This document shows, piece by piece, positions 2,810 to 52,294 of a DNA stretch of 64,000 bases. The translations under genes and the position numbers were made by a program. Below the pieces are notes generated by a model, which saw only the letters and a program-made list of their open reading frames with translations, did no database searches and was not told where the DNA came from. The stretch's first letter is position 1; each line of letters begins with the position of its first letter. The DNA comes from Tequatrovirus BCH953P4, in the sequence record OZ035789.1, one strand, 5' to 3'.

Positions 2810-3540
2810 TTTCCAGTATAATCCTTTTTAGCAATATGAGTCTCACCGGTGTTCCACCAATGGTCAACTAAATAAAACTGATTTTCGTACACATGAAGAC
2901 TTCCAACGTTCCATATAATAGAACCTGCTTTATATTGCCGCGATGGGTCGCCTGCATTCAAATCAGATACTAATTTATCTAGTACGTATTTTTGCCAAGC
3001 ATAATCATTACGATAGCCTGCCCAGCAATCATTGCTTCTCATGCTAACAACCGCATTGACTTTCTTATCACGAATCAGGTACTGTACTGTATTAGTACAC
3101 ATGAAATCTGACATACCATCTTTATTGTAATCAAATTGCATGGATGGACGAGTATAAATCATGATACCACGTCGAGAATCAGGATTTTGACCAAGTTCAG
3201 CTAAACACATATCATACTGGGCATAGTTATCTTCTGACCAAATAGCCCAACCATAATTCGAGTTAATTTCGCCTTTAGAAGATGCTACTTGTTGCCAAAT
3301 CTTCGGTGTTTCACCCGGAATATCTTTAACAAACAAACTCTTAGATTTATACCATTCAAGTTCACGCTGAATGTATTCATCATTAAGAGCGCCAAAAATA
3401 AACGGTTCATCTGCTACAAATGATGCGCCAATAATTTCAATAGTTTTAACACCAGTTTTATCAACTACGAAATCTTTTTCCTTTAATGCAGTTCCCAAAT
3501 AAAAACGGATTTCTTCAACTGTCATAGAGTCATTAATCAT
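2800..3540 (-). CDS. 42: dCMP hydroxymethylase (thymidylate synthase fold)
   Basis: 246 aa, same length as T4 gp42; conserved position upstream of the glycosyltransferase and uvsX. Confidence 0.88.
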   Translation of the reverse strand: MINDSMTVEEIRFYLGTALKEKDFVVDKTGVKTIEIIGASFVADEPFIFGALNDEYIQRELEWYKSKSLFVKDIPGETPKIWQQVASSKGEINSNYGWAIWSEDNYAQYDMCLAELGQNPDSRRGIMIYTRPSMQFDYNKDGMSDFMCTNTVQYLIRDKKVNAVVSMRSNDCWAGYRNDYAWQKYVLDKLVSDLNAGDPSRQYKAGSIIWNVGSLHVYENQFYLVDHWWNTGETHIAKKDYTGKWK

Positions 3541-3693
3541 TTAAACCTCAATTGATGCATTCATATTTAAATTGTAACAGTAATAAACCCCACCCTATGA
3601 TAAGAGTTGGAATCATAGCAGGAACTGTTACGCTATAGTATATACTTATTATAACCATCAAGATTAAAAGCAACACTGCTATAATTTTGCTTT

Positions 3694-42864: not shown

Positions 42865-43338
42865 TTATTTGAATGATTTAACGTACTGAATAGAACCTTT
42901 ACTATTCACAAAGGCAATTTTACCATTTTTGTTATACATGGTAGCAGTACGCTGATAGCCATAAGTTTGTTTACCAGATTGATAACCAACTAATGCAAAA
43001 TTATCTTCACCCATTTTATTCTGTTTAGCGCGAATGCGTTCATGACCATGTGCCATAAGAACCTTAGCATCACCAGTTGCAATGGATCTACGAGTTTTTT
43101 CATCTTCAACTGTATTAACAAAGTCGTCAAATGAATCAAATTTAGCATGAGATTTATTATACAGTTTTCCATCTACTGCATAATTATATCCCTGTACATC
43201 CATCTCAACTTCTGTACCATCATCCAATACAGCAGTGATTTTTTGACCTTTTTTAAATTTCAAAAGATCAGTAAAAGATTCAGCAATAATTTGAGAATTA
43301 ATAGCTGCTTCAGTGATAAATTCTTGATATGTTTTCAT
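42865..43338 (-). CDS. capsid internal protein with N-terminal capsid-targeting sequence (IPII/IPIII-like)
   Basis: 157 aa; N-terminus MKTYQEFITEA matches the T4 internal-protein targeting consensus. Confidence 0.7.
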   Translation of the reverse strand: MKTYQEFITEAAINSQIIAESFTDLLKFKKGQKITAVLDDGTEVEMDVQGYNYAVDGKLYNKSHAKFDSFDDFVNTVEDEKTRRSIATGDAKVLMAHGHERIRAKQNKMGEDNFALVGYQSGKQTYGYQRTATMYNKNGKIAFVNSKGSIQYVKSFK

Positions 43339-44811: not shown

Positions 44812-45092
44812 TCACTCACAAACTCTTTCATTGATTCATTTTCAATATAAGACATGTAGCTATTATATTCTTTTAATTGTATTTTGTAATCCTTTTTTCT
44901 TTGCCAATTTATTTTAAAATTATCATAATGAAAATATAACATGGTACCAAAGAATGAAAATAATGAAATAATTTTAGTATAGTGAAGTTCACTCCAAACT
45001 TCTGTTATATTTACTGTGCCGTCGATGTTTAAAATAAGACAGTCAATTAACAATCCAAAAAGACTACCCGCAAGAGCTGCAGCCAACGCCAC
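44793..45092 (-). CDS. small membrane protein
   Basis: 99 aa, hydrophobic N-terminal half. Confidence 0.45.
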
Positions 45093-45137
45093 AGCAAAAA
45101 TTAAAAAATGACTCAGGAAGAGAATATTTGACTTTAT

Positions 45138-45551
45138 TTAGTTTTGGCTTTTGCATCGTGATTCCTTAACAAATTTCATAATTTCATCAAATTCGTATGC
45201 AGCAAGTTTAAGCTGGTGTTCCTTTTTAATCTTTTTACACTGTGCTTTCCAATCACGTACGCGTTTACGATAATGTCTTCCTTGATACCAGTATCCTACC
45301 CAATTTACCGGTACTAATAAAAGTGGAACTACCAATGGAAGAATTAGCATTAACACAAGTATTTCGCCAGAATCAATATCAGTCATAACATCTAAAACAC
45401 CTCCAATAATCAATAGAATTACAAATGATATAAGTATAACAGGACCTATTAATACATCGGTAGAAATTATCTGGTGCTTTGATTCATACTTCAAAGGTTT
45501 ACTTGGAAGGTATAGTGATGGTTTTGACATATTCTCTACATTCCTTAACAA
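45138..45551 (-). CDS. membrane protein
   Basis: 137 aa with two long hydrophobic helices; start uncertain. Confidence 0.5.
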   Translation of the reverse strand: MLRNVENMSKPSLYLPSKPLKYESKHQIISTDVLIGPVILISFVILLIIGGVLDVMTDIDSGEILVLMLILPLVVPLLLVPVNWVGYWYQGRHYRKRVRDWKAQCKKIKKEHQLKLAAYEFDEIMKFVKESRCKSQN

Positions 45552-46110
45552 ATTTTTCTAATAATAAATCGCTTTCAAAATTGGGGTTTTCTACGAATTT
45601 ATCAAAAAGATCATCAACAATAGTTAAGATATTCTTTTTACTAAGAATACGTTTATTTTCATGCTTCGTTTCAGAATCAACTATAAGAGTAAAGAAATAT
45701 TTCTTTCCCTGAAATTTTACTGTAGTATCAATATAGAATAAATTTGACTTTTGTAAGTTACGTTTAAACCATGCGTCACTTAAACTATAAACACCGAGAT
45801 AATCAAAATCGTCGTTTAAATAACATACTGTCCATTCAGGAGAAATGAAATCAGTAAATTCAACATCAAAATCACACGTCAATGAATGAATTGATTCAAT
45901 ACTGTTAATAAGTATTCCAGGACGTATTAAAGACTTTTTACCTCTAGAAAATCTTCCAGAAAGACTTTCATCAGTTTCATATGAAGAACCCCAATAATAA
46001 TTACGTCCTTCTGCCATACGTTTAAGAGCATTTAATAATTGGTCTGGAACATCAACTTGTCTTTGGAATTCTTCAAACATTGAATTGAAATCAATTTGCA
46101 TTCTTCTCAT
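45499..46110 (-). CDS. hypothetical protein
   Basis: 203 aa ORF. Confidence 0.55.
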   Translation of the reverse strand: MRRMQIDFNSMFEEFQRQVDVPDQLLNALKRMAEGRNYYWGSSYETDESLSGRFSRGKKSLIRPGILINSIESIHSLTCDFDVEFTDFISPEWTVCYLNDDFDYLGVYSLSDAWFKRNLQKSNLFYIDTTVKFQGKKYFFTLIVDSETKHENKRILSKKNILTIVDDLFDKFVENPNFESDLLLEKFVKECREYVKTITIPSK

Positions 46111-46130
46111 TCCTATTTACTCCAAGTAAT

Positions 46131-46146
46131 AGGGGCCGAAGCCCCT
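46131..46146 (-). terminator. hairpin AGGGGC-UUCG-GCCCCU
   Basis: 6-bp stem with UUCG loop, identical core to the hairpin at 7271. Confidence 0.55.
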
Positions 46147-46151
46147 TATCA

Positions 46152-46745
46152 TTATTTCAGAGAATTAATATATTCCTGAACATCGGCAGAGGTAGTTTCA
46201 ACCCCAGAAATATTACCGTTAAAGGTTTCAACTCGAGCAAGAGTATCTTCAATATCAACCTTAGTCAGCGCTGCAATTTCAACTACATCATCGGCAGTAC
46301 TAATTCCAAGGGCATTTGCTGCACGAGTTTCACGGATATATTCCAATTTAACTGCAAGTTCTTGGCGAGCATCATCCAATTCAACTACTTTCTTGGCGAT
46401 TTCAATTCGCATTTCAGCATAACCATCAGCTTTAGTAGTCAACTGTTCAGCTGTTCGACGATATAGCAAACCGAGTTTAGCATGCATTGTTACATCTTGA
46501 CCTTCAGAAAGAAGCTTGCGAATTTCACGCTCTTTTGATTCGGCCTGCTTATTCTTTTCAATAACAAGTTCACGAATACGTTTTTCTTCATTAATAGATT
46601 TAACAGAAGCAGTTTTTAGGTCTTTAATTTTATCAAGCAGTTTTGCTGCTGCGGCAGTATACTGTTCTTCAACAGATAGATTTTTAGCCATAGCAGAACC
46701 AAGTTTAGTGCGAATAAACTCAACAATTTTCTTCAGTGTGTTCAT
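46152..46745 (-). CDS. coiled-coil protein with weak PspA/IM30-like architecture
   Basis: 197 aa, predominantly helical heptad repeats; resemblance is architectural only. Confidence 0.5.
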
Positions 46746-47035
46746 AGTATTTCCTTTAGTTAATTAAGGGTTTTATAATCCGTGGGAGTATTATACTCCG
46801 GATAGTTTGTAAACTATTTCAACATCGCCTTTTGCTGCTTTATAACCTTCAGCCCAAGATACAACCGAGTTTTTATCCGAAGATTCAAATTCTGGCATTG
46901 GGCTTTCGCCAATGTTCACGCAGTATGTTTCTTCATTTTCGTCGAACCAAATAATTAAAGTAGTCATTTATTTCTCCGTTTCTGTATTTGTTTTGATAAG
47001 TCTATAATAACACCGTCCTTGGTGTTTGTACACAA

Positions 47036-47299
47036 TTATTTCATATTATTGAAATATTCTTCTGCGATTTCGTCGTTATCATGGTAAACTTTAGAAGACA
47101 GTTTAACATAACTTTCAGCAGTGAACATGTTAATCACAACCTTTACAGTATACCACTGACCATCTTCATTACCCATTACTGCGTAAGTTTCAAACATCGG
47201 ATGATCAGGACCGATAACTTTAATATCATTCACTGTACGACCAAAATCTTCTGAAACACATTTCATAAAGAAGTTGAACAGTTCGCCGTAATTATCCAT
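47036..47299 (-). CDS. hypothetical protein (start at internal Met)
   Basis: about 87 aa from MDNYGELF; the longer ORF runs into the promoter. Confidence 0.45.
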   Translation of the reverse strand: MDNYGELFNFFMKCVSEDFGRTVNDIKVIGPDHPMFETYAVMGNEDGQWYTVKVVINMFTAESYVKLSSKVYHDNDEIAEEYFNNMK

Positions 47300-47340
47300 T
47301 TCATTCTCCAAGTTGTTTTTCTGTATCAGTAGTTGATAGT

Positions 47341-47376
47341 TGTATAGTACCATGGAAGAATAGGGATGTAAACAGT
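47341..47376 (-). promoter_or_regulatory. early-type promoter
   Basis: agttgatagttgtatagtaccatgg ... tgtaaaca, near-identical to the element at 4365. Confidence 0.55.
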
Positions 47377-47500
47377 TTTGTGAAAAATTTTTTAAAAAGT
47401 TTTGGGGGAATTCTAGGGCAGGGAGGGCAATTAAAGGATAGGATAATATATTATAAAGGATAGAAACTAAATGATGCCTAGAGAGGCCCGGAAAGGCCTA

Positions 47501-47524
47501 GATACCAAAAAGCCCCGACCAAAA
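47501..47524 (-). terminator. 10-bp GC-rich hairpin, copy 1 of a pair of direct repeats flanking the internal-protein gene
   Basis: agccccgacc-aaaa-ggttggggct with shared flanks ataccaaaaa and aag. Confidence 0.5.
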
Positions 47525-47541
47525 GGTTGGGGCTAAGAATG

Positions 47542-48015
47542 TTATTTGATTTGTTTAGCAGACCAAATGCGGTCTTTAATAATTTTTTGGATGTCTTCAA
47601 CATACTCAAGAGAGTGAACATGTGGGTTATCTTTGAAACTATAAGCACGAGCTAGCTTTTGGCCTTCAGTTTTGATTACTAAAAGCTCTTTAAGGATAGC
47701 TTCATATTTGGAGATAATTCCTTTAACAATATTTTTCTCTTGTGTAGCTTTAGGATCTGCTTTAGGAGCAGGTTTACCTGAAGCCTTTGCAAAAGCAGCT
47801 CCAGTAGCAACTAAACTTTTCCAGGCCATACTAACTGCATTTCCCGTAAATCCTTCCGCTTTCATGTCGCGTGCGAACTGGAATCGCGATTCATCAGAAG
47901 CATCTTTATAAGAATATTTACCCGCTGCAATGGCTGCTTTTGCGACAGCTTGAATTTCGGTGCTAGATGCTTCATTTAACACCGCTTCATTTAAAAATTG
48001 AGTATATGATTTCAT
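47542..48015 (-). CDS. capsid internal protein with N-terminal targeting sequence
   Basis: 157 aa; N-terminus MKSYTQFLNEA; alanine/lysine-rich. Confidence 0.65.
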   Translation of the reverse strand: MKSYTQFLNEAVLNEASSTEIQAVAKAAIAAGKYSYKDASDESRFQFARDMKAEGFTGNAVSMAWKSLVATGAAFAKASGKPAPKADPKATQEKNIVKGIISKYEAILKELLVIKTEGQKLARAYSFKDNPHVHSLEYVEDIQKIIKDRIWSAKQIK

Positions 48016-48069
48016 CTTATTTCCTGTTTTAATTCGTGGATTTAATATACTACTATATTTATACCAAAA

Positions 48070-48093
48070 AGCCCCAACCTTTCGGTCGGGGCT
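48070..48093 (-). terminator. 10-bp GC-rich hairpin, copy 2 (GAAA loop on the transcribed strand)
   Basis: agccccaacc-tttc-ggtcggggct; same flanks as copy 1. Confidence 0.5.
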
Positions 48094-48099
48094 AAGCCT

Positions 48100-48400
48100 T
48101 GCGGCAACCTTGTCGAGGTTCCACCTGCTAAGGCAAGTGTTTGTACGAAACGCCGGGACTTGAACCCGGTTATTAAGTAGTTGACGCTACTCAATATTTT
48201 TAAAAGGCCATATCTCGACCATATCCGAACGTTCCGTCAAAAACGCTACTCGGCTTACGGCAAAGATATTTCCTCGAATCGATAATTCGGTGCGCCGTTT
48301 CTGCTGTGATGTAAGAGGGCATTAGCAGATCGTAAAGATTTGTTAATGCCAGTCCTTAAACAGGGAACATCAGTCCGACGACTTACCGGTAGCGACCCGG
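48100..48400 (-). ncRNA. candidate small stable RNAs (T4 species 1/2 type) between tRNA-Arg and the internal-protein gene
   Basis: 300 nt with no ORF; GC-rich; T-arm-like ccgggttcaagtccc on the minus strand; T4 carries two stable RNAs at this location (recalled). Confidence 0.35.
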
Positions 48401-48409
48401 TTTCTTGTC

Positions 48410-48486
<77 letters not shown>

Positions 48487-48489
48487 TAG

Positions 48490-49155
48490 TTAAAATTTCA
48501 TTTTTCGACCTTTAAACCATCCTTCTGGAATTGGGTCAGTTTTCTTAATACGTTTAGAAACTTTTTCATCTAATGAATGAATCCACATCATACCAAATTG
48601 GGAATTCTTTTCACCTTGTTGGTGTTTATTTCTGGCGTGAGATTCTTTCATTTTATTAATAGTTTCAGGAGTATGGGTCTTACCCAAGAAAGATTTAGTA
48701 TTTAAAAATTTCTCTCTATACTTAGGATTATCCCAAAACTGTTTAAACCTTTCTGAACCCATTTTACGATATTTTTCTTTAAGGTCTGGGTCGTTCTCAA
48801 ATCTGGTTTTAAAAGCGGCAGCTCCTTTTAAGGAAGCTTCTTTCTTTTTATCCAAATATTCTTTAGTGTTTAAATGGTCCCAACCACCTTCACCACCTAA
48901 TTTCAAATTATAAACATCAGAGCGCTTTAAAAACTCTTCAGTCACAATATTCTTTTCTGACTCAAACATAGAGGTTTTATCGTCAAAGAACTCTAATATT
49001 TCTTTAGAAAAATTTTCTATACCATACTTATCTTGGGCTCTTTTTAATAATTTACCAGAACCCATATATCCATCATCTAAATTTTCGGTAGAATGAGCGC
49101 CTATATAGATTTTATTATTAATTTTATTTGTTATTTTATAAGTGTAATGGAACAT
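48490..49155 (-). mobile_element. segB: SegB-like GIY-YIG homing endonuclease within the tRNA cluster
   Basis: 221 aa; N-terminal YTYKITNKINNKIYIGAHST GIY-YIG motif; same location and length as T4 segB. Confidence 0.8.
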
Positions 49156-49196
49156 AAATATCTCCTATTTCTAAGAGTATTTATGTTCCCAAAATA

Positions 49197-49268
49197 TGGC
49201 CCTGGGTGGAATTGAACCACCATCTGGCGATTATGAGTCGCTTGCTTGAACCTTCCAGCTACAGGGCC
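49197..49268 (-). tRNA. tRNA with anticodon CAU (Ile2-type or Met)
   Basis: acceptor GGCCCUG/CAGGGCC, anticodon loop CUCAUAA, T-loop UUCAAUU; last tRNA of the T4-order cluster. Confidence 0.75.
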
Positions 49269-49274
49269 TTGATA

Positions 49275-49347
49275 TGCTGATTGACGGAATCGAACCGCCG
49301 ACATCCTCATTACAAGTGAGGTGCTCTACCTACTGAGCTAAATCAGC
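49275..49347 (-). tRNA. tRNA-Thr (UGU)
   Basis: acceptor GCUGAUU/AAUCAGC, anticodon stem-loop CCUCA-CUUGUAA-UGAGG, T-arm GGUUCGAUUCC. Confidence 0.85.
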
Positions 49348-49354
49348 GAAATTA

Positions 49355-49441
49355 CGGAGGCGATAGGATTTGAACCTATGAGTCGCCGGAGCGACTGCCG
49401 GTTTTCAAGACCGGTGCATTAAACCACTCTGCCACGCCTCC
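49355..49441 (-). tRNA. tRNA-Ser (UGA), long variable arm
   Basis: acceptor GGAGGCG/CGCCUCC, anticodon stem-loop CCGGU-CUUGAAA-ACCGG, long extra arm, T-arm GGUUCAAAUCC. Confidence 0.85.
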
Positions 49442-49443
49442 AG

Positions 49444-49517
49444 TCTCCGCGGCAGGATTTGAACCTGCGACATTCTGCTCCCAAAGCAGACGCTCTACCA
49501 AACTGAGCTACACGGAG
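49444..49517 (-). tRNA. tRNA-Pro (UGG)
   Basis: anticodon stem-loop UCUGC-UUUGGGA-GCAGA, T-arm GGUUCAAAUCC. Confidence 0.85.
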
Positions 49518-49529
49518 TAAATTAAATTT

Positions 49530-49601
<72 letters not shown>

Positions 49602-49607
49602 AAACTT

Positions 49608-49694
49608 TGGTACGAGAAGTGGGACTCGAACCCACAAGGAAATCATTCCGCAGCATTTTAAGTGCTGTGCCTTTACCAATTTGACCATTCTCGC
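49608..49694 (-). tRNA. tRNA-Leu (UAA), long variable arm, CCA encoded
   Basis: anticodon stem-loop CAGCA-CUUAAAA-UGCUG, long extra arm, T-arm GGUUCGAGUCC, 3' ACCA. Confidence 0.85.
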
Positions 49695-49695
49695 G

Positions 49696-49768
49696 CTGGG
49701 AATAAAGGACTCGAACCTTTGCATCTAGCAGTCAAAGTGCTATGCCTTACCAACTTGGCTAATTCCCA
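49696..49768 (-). tRNA. tRNA-Gln (UUG)
   Basis: acceptor UGGGAAU/AUUCCCA, anticodon stem-loop UAGCA-CUUUGAC-UGCUA, T-arm GGUUCGAGUCC. Confidence 0.85.
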
Positions 49769-49854
49769 ATTATTAACAAAGGCTCTCTAACAAGAACCCT
49801 TGATGATAGAGGGTATTAATCAGTGCGATATGAATTAATAATAACAAATAATTC

Positions 49855-50379
49855 TTAAAGCAAATTAAACATTTTAACGGTCGGCAAAACAATTTCTTCT
49901 TCTATATAAGAGTATTTAACACTCTCAACTACACGCAAAAAATCATAATCATAATACTCAGAAGCATTACCTAAAATATTAATAAGTCCTTCAAGCACTT
50001 TATTACCATTCACAAAGAATAAGTCAAATACACGTTCTTCATCTTCTTCAGATTTATTACCAAGATCAACTTCTATGCGAAAGACCTTTTTAATGAATTC
50101 TGGATAAAGCTGGTCTGAGAACAGTCCTTCAACCAAGTATTCATAAATAAAAAGAGATTGCTCGCTGAACAAACCATTACCACAATAGCGCTCAATTTTA
50201 GTACTAGAATATCTGCTTTTAAACTTCTTTAAAAGATACTGAAATTGTAAGATTTCATGCTCTTCTACGCCAAACAGTGTTTTAGTTTTATAGTTGTCAC
50301 CATCATTTTCCCAGGTAGTGACATCAATTACGTAGCCCTGCGGAATTGTAGTACCTAAACAAATATTCATTTTCACCAC
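49855..50379 (-). CDS. hypothetical protein
   Basis: 174 aa ORF upstream of the tRNA cluster. Confidence 0.55.
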   Translation of the reverse strand: MVKMNICLGTTIPQGYVIDVTTWENDGDNYKTKTLFGVEEHEILQFQYLLKKFKSRYSSTKIERYCGNGLFSEQSLFIYEYLVEGLFSDQLYPEFIKKVFRIEVDLGNKSEEDEERVFDLFFVNGNKVLEGLINILGNASEYYDYDFLRVVESVKYSYIEEEIVLPTVKMFNLL

Positions 50380-50663
50380 GCTGCATTAATGTAAGTATAT
50401 TTAATACATCCAAGACCCAAAGGATTCTTGAAAATATCATATTCAAGAGGACCTTTTTCTGTTTCAATAAAGAAATCAAAATTTACTGTATTAAATGCAC
50501 GGTCTTCCTTTACTAATTTAACTTGAGAAGATGAACGGTCAATGTAAACCTTTTCAACTTCAAAACATGTTAAAACGCCATAATCATCAATCAAGGCTTT
50601 AGCTGCGTCTTGATCATATTTATATCCATTTTCAATGGATGATACTTTAGCATAAAGAATCAT
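50373..50663 (-). CDS. hypothetical protein
   Basis: 96 aa ORF. Confidence 0.5.
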   Translation of the reverse strand: MILYAKVSSIENGYKYDQDAAKALIDDYGVLTCFEVEKVYIDRSSSQVKLVKEDRAFNTVNFDFFIETEKGPLEYDIFKNPLGLGCIKYTYINAAW

Positions 50664-50665
50664 TA

Positions 50666-51085
50666 TCAGCCTTCATCAACAATAGTATGAGTGTGGGCAT
50701 TTACAATTTGCCACCAATCAAAGCGATTAGAACCATACATCGGTTTGTTTTCATTTTCTTTGATAATATCACGGAGTTCATCTTCGGTAGCGGCTTTCGC
50801 GATTAAATCAGCATATCCACCACGAGGATAATAATTATCACCTGCAAAAAGTAAAAAGTTTGGTTTAATATTATTAAACTCTTCAAGAGTAATAACTGTT
50901 CCACCAGGTTGAACAATCTCTACATAACTATATCCTAATTTTTGAGCAGCATCTACTGCTTCAAGCAGGGTATCATGAGCCCATCCAATTTGGCAATCTG
51001 GCTTTTCAGATGGATTAGCCTGATAATCCGCGTACACTTTATACATTCTATTCACCTTTAGAAATTTTATCCATAACGATAGCAA
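50666..51085 (-). CDS. hypothetical protein
   Basis: 139 aa ORF. Confidence 0.55.
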   Translation of the reverse strand: MLSLWIKFLKVNRMYKVYADYQANPSEKPDCQIGWAHDTLLEAVDAAQKLGYSYVEIVQPGGTVITLEEFNNIKPNFLLFAGDNYYPRGGYADLIAKAATEDELRDIIKENENKPMYGSNRFDWWQIVNAHTHTIVDEG

Positions 51086-51233: not shown

Positions 51234-51291
51234 TTTATTCTCCTCAGTAGTTGATAGGGTAATAGTATCACTACCCTATCTAAAAGTAAAC

Positions 51292-51525
51292 TTATTTTTT
51301 ACGAAAAATTGATTTATTTTCTGCTGCCCATTTTTCAATAACTGCAGCCGGACCAGTAACAACAATTTTATCACCGTAATCTTCTGCGGCGAGTTGACCG
51401 AAATTATCTAATGCATCACGAAGAACTCCATGAGGCATTTCACCCATTTTATCTTTCTTGCCAGTGTAAATAAACTCAACTTTTACATCAGAAGATTCAG
51501 CGATAAATTCTTTAAACGTTTTCAT
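51292..51525 (-). CDS. small capsid internal protein with N-terminal targeting sequence at the ipI locus (not T4 IPI)
   Basis: 77 aa; N-terminus MKTFKEFIAES; location between the tRNA region and 57B. Confidence 0.65.
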   Translation of the reverse strand: MKTFKEFIAESSDVKVEFIYTGKKDKMGEMPHGVLRDALDNFGQLAAEDYGDKIVVTGPAAVIEKWAAENKSIFRKK

Positions 51526-51597
51526 TTTATTTTCCTAATTAATTTTGATGAGATAATAGTATCACTACCTCATCAGCATGTAAACAACTTTATGAAA

Positions 51598-52294
<697 letters not shown>

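Follow-up and report, generated by a model that had tools for sequence, protein, structure and literature searches.

We identified a 36-nt direct repeat on either side of a small minus-strand open reading frame (ORF), termed ORF-A, in a 64,000-nt stretch of Tequatrovirus BCH953P4 (OZ035789.1; this whole stretch is called the window below). Each copy of the repeat folds into a hairpin with the anatomy of a transcription terminator, and the observations as a whole are best explained, in our view quite probably, by duplicated terminators that make ORF-A an excisable late unit with a packaged product.

The two copies of the repeat (copy 1, ATACCAAAAAGCCCCGACCAAAAGGTTGGGGCTAAG; copy 2, ATACCAAAAAGCCCCAACCTTTCGGTCGGGGCTAAG; coordinates in Table 1) lie 559 nt apart and are identical at 30 of 36 positions. 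A degenerate pattern of the repeat, allowing up to three mismatches, matched these two sites only in the 64 kb window, where chance predicts 0.00 matches (none in 100 dinucleotide-preserving shuffles), and both copies fold on either strand into 10-bp stems (-16 to -20.6 kcal/mol; z -2.3 to -4.1). This bears out a first-pass annotation of the same DNA, which had described near-identical 36-bp hairpin repeats around a 157-aa gene with a capsid targeting sequence. In most relatives the two copies agree at 35-36 of 36 positions, and the likeness extends past the stem into flanks that do not pair (CTTA before and TTTTTGGTAT after). In the phage database the hairpin was found at 1144 places in 719 records, with at most two in any listed record, and therefore the repeat has been duplicated locally and does not belong to a dispersed mobile family. 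The lack of an integrase and the copy number of only two per genome led us to drop integron-like and REP/MITE-like readings. A pattern scan of IMG/VR returned ten loci, six of which were unrelated contigs carrying look-alike terminators with other flanks and were uninformative. An Rfam scan of positions 45000-51000 (E<=1) returned the eight tRNAs and chance matches only, with no family for the hairpins and no model for the neighbouring RNA genes rnaC and rnaD.

Read on the minus strand, each copy has the layout of an intrinsic terminator: CUUAGCCCC..GGGGC and then UUUUUGGUAU, with a 10-bp stem that includes 7 GC pairs and is closed by a 4-nt loop. Copy 2 was picked up by a terminator scan (10 pairs, 7 GC, T-rich tail) and its minus-strand fold reaches -20.3 kcal/mol (z -3.5); copy 1 folds at -17.2 kcal/mol with one A.C mismatch. 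The neighbouring genes all lie on the minus strand, copy 2 standing about 50 nt past rnaC and copy 1 starting 5 nt past the stop codon of ORF-A. In addition, the stems of relatives contain a G.U pair and alternate between A-U and G.U at two positions, all of which are paired only in the minus-strand RNA and become A.C mismatches on the plus strand. Other annotators have called terminators at these hairpins in Kha5h, in fPS-65 and, for both copies, in NBG2. In KpV477 the inner stem differs (GTC/GAC) at the same place. These features suggest that both repeats are copies of one Rho-independent terminator, copy 2 probably serving the tRNA/rnaD/rnaC unit and copy 1 probably serving ORF-A. The first-pass annotation had also considered transcript-processing signals; the hairpins appear to be first of all intrinsic terminators, one of them fused to a late-promoter match. 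The terminator past rnaC at the end of the T4 tRNA cluster is orthologous to copy 2 (24/24 in the stem-loop, same place relative to rnaC), but in T4 it is single and directly followed by the region upstream of e.8, whereas the window has it twice, with the tail of copy 2 fused to the putative late promoter.

This late-promoter consensus, TATAAATA, is followed by an AGGAAA Shine-Dalgarno sequence before the ORF-A start codon. It occurs at exactly that position before every ORF-A homologue examined, in four genera including Dhakavirus and Jiaodavirus, and the annotation of fPS-65 lists the site as a 'predicted late promoter'. Our call of TATAAATA as a putative late promoter draws on this position and on the comparison with relatives.

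The N-terminus of the ORF-A product, MKSYTQFLNE/AVLNE/A (slashes, predicted cuts), is a capsid-targeting-like leader with L-x-E prohead-protease motifs at residues 8-10 and 13-15, and it was compared with the leaders of two ORFs at the internal-protein (Ip) loci of the window (MKTYQEFITE/A and MKTFKEFIAE/S) and with that of T4 IPI (MKTFKEF...). Capsid targeting sequences of T-even Ips comprise about 10-19 N-terminal residues and end in an L/I-x-E prohead-protease site. In the capsid targeting sequence of IPIII, positions 4 and 7 are reported to govern targeting and positions 8 and 10 to govern processing (PMC9026906). The ORF-A leader has Y4, F7, L8 and E10 at these determinant positions, in agreement with the capsid-targeting-type leader noticed in the first pass. 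The predicted mature protein is about 16 kDa with a pI of 9.5. ORF-A was found in 469 phage records by DNA search and in 510 by protein search, always labelled hypothetical, and a further homologue search found 13, all hypothetical and all from T4-like phages. No Pfam match above threshold was obtained for ORF-A, whereas T4 IPI does match PF11634; the AlphaFold model of ORF-A is all-helical (pLDDT 74, pTM 0.40) and a Foldseek search of the PDB with this model gave no fold match at E<1, nor any hit at E<2. Since the Ips have only the leader in common (PMC12373910), missing Pfam or fold kinship to a characterised Ip is not disqualifying, and it is a reasonable prediction that ORF-A is a candidate internal (injected) protein. 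The first-pass annotation had placed the gene in an internal-protein locus; it lies instead between rnaC and e.8, outside both recognised Ip loci, namely the ipI locus, which in the window holds an ORF at 51292-51525, and the ipII/ipIII region near lysozyme. In KpV477 the ORF-A homologue (L022 2495-3027; MKFKEFLAE/ASS) has an in-frame TAA at about position 2730 and is annotated as short fragments; this interruption may be a pseudogene or a sequencing error.

Table 1. Features at the ORF-A locus; positions are those of the window.
Feature	Coordinates	Strand	Remarks
Hairpin copy 2 (upstream in transcription)	48061..48096	-	Stem-loop 48070-48093: AGCCCCGACC-GAAA-GGUUGGGGCU, then UUUUUGGUAU
Hairpin copy 1 (downstream in transcription)	47502..47537	-	Stem-loop 47511-47534: AGCCCCAACC-UUUU-GGUCGGGGCU, then UUUUUGGUAU
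ORF-A, 157 aa, basic	47542..48015	-	From the ORF list; PHROG 2280 (function not assigned)
Late-promoter consensus TATAAATA	48056..48063	-	Overlaps the 3' tail of copy 2; 40 nt before the ORF-A ATG
rnaC (species 1 RNA), last RNA gene of the tRNA unit	48144..48282	-	Approximate; constant offset from T4 (L004 4909-5047)
Early-promoter-like site before e.8	47344..47372	-	TTTACA, 17 nt spacer, TACTAT, TG-extended; from the promoter scan
e.8 homologue, conserved downstream flank of the variable slot	47036..47299	-	PHROG 2678 match, residues 19-105 of a longer ORF

The conserved flanks of the site were found in 786 phage records, and the junctions of 19 loci were aligned in register on the rnaC and e.8 flanks. 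T4 has a single hairpin and lacks the ORF; to the left of this hairpin stands the same flank as to the left of copy 1 in the window, and to its right the same flank as to the right of copy 2, and thus the 559-bp difference between T4 and the window is bounded exactly by the repeat. T2 and several others have a one-piece junction as in T4. When a T4 junction of 130 nt was used as a BLAST query, its halves were bridged over the cassette, and the outcome, 5/19 full-length rows in one piece, is a sample estimate only. Between the same rnaC and e.8 flanks we found five configurations with zero to two cassettes: no cassette (T4 and Mosigvirus phiEC1); ORF-A only (the window, NBG2, ASO78A, Kha5h, RB27 and LH2); a second reading frame, ORF-B, only (RB14 and RB69); ORF-A then ORF-B (Nami, HP3, CrRp10, PhAPEC2 and two IMG/VR genomes); and ORF-A then an unrelated membrane-type ORF (GRNsp7). 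The comparison across T-even relatives proposed in the first pass supported that annotation in part, in that the content between the rnaC and e.8 flanks varies while the hairpin is kept.

ORF-B encodes 187 aa starting with MKTYAEFLTE/AA, a capsid-targeting-like leader, and is present in 165 phage records, annotated as hypothetical. It has the 11-residue leader in common with ORF-A and nothing else. At its end stands a different stem, CCCTATC-TAAAT-GATAGGG, with the same tail, GGGCTTTTTGGTATCTAGG, so that the ORF-B cassette is bounded by the 9-nt overlap GGGCTTTTT. In the Salmonella phage GRNsp7 (L024 1975-2572), ORF-A is followed by another short terminator, GCCCTGTCCAGGGC, and then by a 184-aa hydrophobic ORF, which takes the place of ORF-B and has no capsid-targeting leader.

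The hairpin appears to act as a common joint: before it stands rnaC or the end of ORF-A, and after it the e.8 leader, the ORF-A late promoter or the ORF-B leader. As in the comparison of T4 with the window, the end points of insertions and deletions in RB14, Nami, PhAPEC2 and GRNsp7 fall within these elements, and variation at the locus takes the form of loss, allelic divergence and addition of neighbouring cassettes. The two copies within one genome often share lineage-specific variants, for example TTCC in PhAPEC2 and AGCC in RB27, and this sharing points to gene conversion or recent exchange. Between the window and RB27, identity drops from about 96% to 54-86% from the hairpin and late promoter through the ORF and recovers near the 3' end of the ORF, and in LH2 the breakpoint lies inside the ORF. 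The locus therefore looks like a recombinational mosaic in which the hairpin would be one preferred edge.

In most relatives the inner stem and loop of both copies read AACC-TTTC-GGTC or AACC-TTTT-GGTC on the plus strand. The inner 12 nt of copy 1 in the window, GACC-AAAA-GGTT, are the exact reverse complement of the AACC-TTTT-GGTC found at the same position in ASO78A, and therefore one small inversion between the outer stem arms would explain all six differences between the copies. The flipped form was seen in about 6 records (full-length matches of 94-100% identity), including ES12, ES26, T4_ev240, KAW1E185 and a48, against about 340 records of the unflipped form with its expected 89.3% identity, and the flipped copy 1 appears to be a rare derived state. 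Small hairpin-associated inversions, in which loops flip between inverted-repeat arms, are well known in plastid non-coding DNA. Copy 1 resembles them in that its inner 12 nt are the reverse complement of the common form (GACCAAAAGGTT vs AACCTTTTGGTC) with the outer arms GCCCC/GGGGC as bounds, but here the flip lies in a phage terminator and changes, on the RNA strand, G.U into an A.C mismatch and the GAAA/AAAA loop into UUUU.

At the same place, Dhakavirus IME08 (29% identity, E 5e-9) and Jiaodavirus KpV477 carry remote ORF-A homologues behind a hairpin and TATAAATA, with unrelated terminators downstream. The combination of hairpin, TATAAATA and ORF-A homologue thus occurs in four genera, Tequatrovirus, Mosigvirus, Dhakavirus and Jiaodavirus, which argues for a long residence of the gene and its terminator/late-promoter head at this site, with only the downstream duplicate confined to Tequatrovirus and Mosigvirus. 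The lineages of T4 and of Mosigvirus phiEC1 have empty sites, and on both flanks these two are nested among occupied relatives. These patterns favour repeated loss through recombination between the copies over gain by integration.

The foremost alternative is that the cassette is a recent insertion, the single hairpin of T4 and T2 being ancestral and a circular or linear donor carrying the late promoter, ORF-A and hairpin having integrated at the resident terminator and duplicated it. The geometry of the junctions suits integration as well as excision, a mini-circle integration model has been published (PMC2839356; PMC4122927), and the copies are near-identical in most genomes, as a recent duplication predicts. 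We nevertheless consider this alternative rather unlikely given the four genera with ORF-A behind the hairpin and TATAAATA, some of them with unrelated downstream terminators, which speak for an old gene, and given the two separate lineages with empty sites, each nested among cassette-bearing relatives.

For the preferred reading, in which the duplicated terminators make ORF-A an excisable late unit, we start from what the sequences show, namely the repeat and its hairpins, the exact position of the junctions and the spread of the cassettes among relatives, and from these we infer termination, late transcription, packaging and the pathway and direction of recombination. A local duplication would have provided two terminator copies on the leftward transcript. 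Copy 2 would stop the tRNA-rnaD-rnaC transcript, and the late promoter TATAAATA would begin in its tail; with copy 1 as the terminator at the other end, ORF-A would form a self-contained late transcription unit. Because of its capsid-targeting-type leader, the product probably enters proheads, where the prohead protease would cut it after E10 or E15, and is then probably injected along with the DNA. Since the terminators form direct repeats some 36-40 bp long, the recombination-proficient replication machinery of T4-type phages could delete the 559-bp unit between them, which would leave one hairpin, the state of T4 and T2, and in a mixed infection the same homology could serve to exchange the unit or bring it back. 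ORF-B, whose cassette has a different terminator stem of its own, would have been joined at the same hairpin tail. Recombination in T4 requires less than 50 bp of homology, and in RB49 and phi1 ORFs are lost and mini-circles arise when flanking terminator/promoter elements recombine, as examined for RB49 by inverse PCR on infected cells (PMC2839356; PMC4122927).

Several observations weigh against this reading. With respect to termination, copy 1 was missed by the terminator scan and has the A.C mismatch in its RNA. Covariation is minimal because the near-identical copies vary too little to prove the structure: pairing holds in 90.7% of cells, the single compensatory pair (C-G to G-C) comes from IME08, and 34/500 shuffles scored as high as the real alignment. 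Our literature search found no 3'-end data for either hairpin and no proteomic report of the ORF-A product. TATAAATA is not enriched in the AT-rich window (12 observed vs 10.4 expected). With respect to exchange, the first-pass suggestion that the repeats are recombination boundaries of a swappable cassette holds for gain, loss and allele exchange but not for replacement by an unrelated gene, as only ORF-A alleles, of 75-100% identity, were found between two hairpin copies. The flip in copy 1 leaves 15 nt of uninterrupted direct homology between the two copies of the window, and because of this shortened homology excision may be inefficient in this particular phage. The direction of change, loss or gain, depends on a nesting tree built from short alignments of a small sample without support values, and for this reason loss is favoured and gain is kept as a less probable alternative.

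A further alternative holds that the hairpins are targets of a dedicated enzyme, such as a site-specific recombinase, a structure-specific nuclease or SegB, or that their main role is in the processing or stability of rnaC and of the ORF mRNA. The gene segB (48490-49155) is found some 400 bp upstream, GGGG...CCCC stem-loops might be a recombination target according to a speculation of Arbiol et al. (PMC2839356), and the T4 deletions of Mosig, so far as they are described in that paper, often fall at GGGC/GCCC motifs (PMC2839356). However, there is no recombinase gene in the neighbourhood, segB is missing at this place from the cassette-bearing phages NBG2, Nami and RB27, and the 9-nt GGGCTTTTT joint of ORF-B together with the differing allelic breakpoints speaks less for a fixed site than for recombination of a general or illegitimate kind. 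Transcripts would also gain stability from a 3' hairpin, but such a role is compatible with the terminator reading and not exclusive of it, and we consider this pair of explanations improbable. Least probable is that the likeness of the copies has no recombinational meaning and reflects selection for a strong hairpin with chance coincidence of the indel boundaries: GC-rich GGGG/CCCC terminators are common, and unrelated viral contigs (L005-L007, L010, L013) carry look-alike hairpins with other flanks, but the identity of 35-36/36 in most relatives runs past the stem into the non-pairing flanks, the T4 junction falls exactly within the repeat, lineage-specific variants are common to both copies, and a stem of the window type is not required because quite different terminator stems serve ORF-B and the homologues in Dhakavirus and Jiaodavirus.

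The region as a whole is the tRNA region of Tequatrovirus (787 phage records match by megablast, the best at 96.5% identity), with eight tRNA genes at 48410-49768 and the GIY-YIG homing endonuclease gene segB among them. The annotated order in T4, with which Kha5h, NBG2 and ASO78A agree, is ipI - trna.4/.3/.2 - tRNAs - segB - tRNA-Arg - rnaD - rnaC - e.8 - e.7 - e.6. T4 is collinear with the window, and rnaC is annotated at the same place in Kha5h and RB27. On the other side, copy 1 is followed by GGUAUCUAGG, and an early-promoter-like site (Table 1) lies about 130 nt downstream of it, where ASO78A annotates a T4-type early promoter; e.8 is annotated in T4, Kha5h, RB14 and RB69. Immediately downstream of copy 1 there is another short inverted repeat, also GC-rich (47470-47501; minus strand, CTAGGCCTTTCCGGGCCTCTCTAGGC), which is kept with small changes in T4 and relatives.

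Within the tRNA cluster, segB (48490-49155) takes the place of the tRNA-Asn and tRNA-Tyr genes of NBG2, ASO78A, RB14 and RB27; both of these tRNA genes are missing from the window, as they are from T4. The tRNA that ARAGORN called tRNA-Met(CAT) in the window (49197-49268) corresponds to T4 tRNA-Ile. An ORF of about 115 aa stands between tRNA-Arg and rnaD in Nami, CrRp10, phiEC1, RB69 (ORF150c), PhAPEC2 and GRNsp7 (L015 6056-6406, L017 ~3300-3650, L021 2677-3021), and is missing from the window (48290-48410) and from T4. The slot between e.8 and e.6 is also polymorphic: the window has a 58-aa ORF (46791-46967) of the RB14 ORF134 / RB69ORF145c type, T4 has e.7 (111 aa; L004 3969-4304), Nami has a 176-aa ORF (L015 3415-3945), and CrRp10 has an e.7-like ORF together with the 176-aa ORF (L018 3014-3945). 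In an evolution experiment with phage BW-1 (OR125554), one convergent rnaD single-nucleotide polymorphism (SNP) arose in all lines adapting to ECOR34 (PMC12685909). BW-1 carries ORF-B, and rnaD adjoins the cassette region on its upstream side; a tie between this SNP and expression of the downstream cassettes is possible.

At the ipI locus of the window, a minus-strand ORF of 77 aa (51292-51525) starts with MKTFKEFIAE/S and differs from T4 IPI. Direct repeats GTTTAC...GGTAGTGATACTATTA stand on both sides of this ORF (51250-51600), inside AT-rich stem-loops, and are the early-promoter stem-loop elements described for Ip loci (PMC2839356). A further leader-bearing ORF (42865-43338, minus strand, 157 aa, MKTYQEFITE/AA) lies downstream of the lysozyme region, with a 138-aa ORF between it and a lysozyme-sized ORF of 164 aa; the gene order there appears to differ from the T4 order e-ipIII-ipII-denV.

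In a broader sense, and quite tentatively, the rnaC/e.8 site could be a third, unrecognised hot-spot for capsid-targeted injected proteins, in which duplicated terminators make excisable late cassettes, ORF-A and ORF-B are new anti-defence candidates like Ip1-3 (for example, GmrSD inhibitors), and the flip in copy 1 acts as a lock that lowers cassette loss. If so, this hot-spot would be empty in T4 and T2 and filled by ORF-A in about 500 relatives and by ORF-B in 165. Ip1, Ip2 and Ip3 each block specific GmrSD restriction enzymes (PMC12373910), and therefore ORF-A and ORF-B are testable candidates for further injected anti-defence factors, which may help account for host-range differences among therapeutic T4-like phages. 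Both are widespread, unannotated, leader-bearing candidates outside the two textbook Ip loci, and T4, T2 and T6 have neither. The locus also offers a clean case, at the level of sequence, of regulatory hairpins that would double as recombination joints for accessory genes in T4-type phages, and its new aspect is a putative late promoter where early or middle promoters were described before. The parts themselves, a duplicated terminator, a late promoter and a small accessory gene, are ordinary; current understanding is not overturned and the interest of the locus is modest.

Two Ip loci have been described, including in a 2025 study of Ip1-3 (PMC12373910), and our literature search, which did not extend to Repoila 1994 and Comeau 2007, found no mention of rnaC/e.8 as a third Ip site and no use of the ORF names from the RB phages. 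Repoila et al. (1994), as they are cited in PMC2839356, described analogous elements at the two Ip loci, in the form of AT-rich stem-loops on early promoters. Insofar as the ipI and ipII/ipIII loci of T-even phages are reported through later papers (Repoila et al. 1994 via PMC2839356, PMC3012670 and PMC12373910), they resemble the rnaC/e.8 locus in holding small ORFs that share only an N-terminal leader, in the varying number and identity of these ORFs among relatives, and in the conserved regulatory repeats that flank them. They differ in that rnaC/e.8 is another site, with a GC-rich terminator repeat in place of AT-rich early-promoter stem-loops, and in that ORF-A and ORF-B are annotated only as hypothetical proteins. 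The likeness to integron cassettes with attC hairpins, which also form promoter-proximal arrays of single genes parted by imperfect palindromes, is superficial: here there are no integrase, no attI/attC consensus and no promoterless cassettes, and the comparison is an analogy only.

The closest known system is that of the PeSLs (promoter-early stem-loops) and PmSLs (promoter-middle stem-loops) of the Krisch laboratory. These composite terminator/promoter elements flank small ORFs in hyperplastic regions of the T4-type phages; indels that distinguish close relatives coincide with them, and their recombination deletes an ORF or gives rise to mini-circles (Arbiol et al. 2010, PMC2839356; Comeau et al. 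2014, PMC4122927). As there, terminator and promoter elements flank small non-essential ORFs at the locus described here, indels fall at the elements, each ORF would be a transcriptionally insulated module, and recombination between neighbouring elements is proposed to yield deletion or a mini-circle. In contrast to the PeSLs and PmSLs, whose promoters are sigma-70-like early or Mot-dependent middle ones, the promoter fused to the hairpin here is of the late type, TATAAATA; only the stem-loop and a short tail are repeated, and not the promoter; and the element occurs at one locus with at most two copies per genome, whereas theirs number dozens. Thus, of the features that characterise PeSLs, the locus shows indel end points within the elements, but neither a stem-loop set directly before an early promoter and the Shine-Dalgarno sequence of the next ORF nor the many dispersed copies. 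With these two defining features missing and the same working apparent from the sequences compared, we regard the locus as a probable local example of the known shuffling of terminator/promoter cassettes, PeSL-like in kind.

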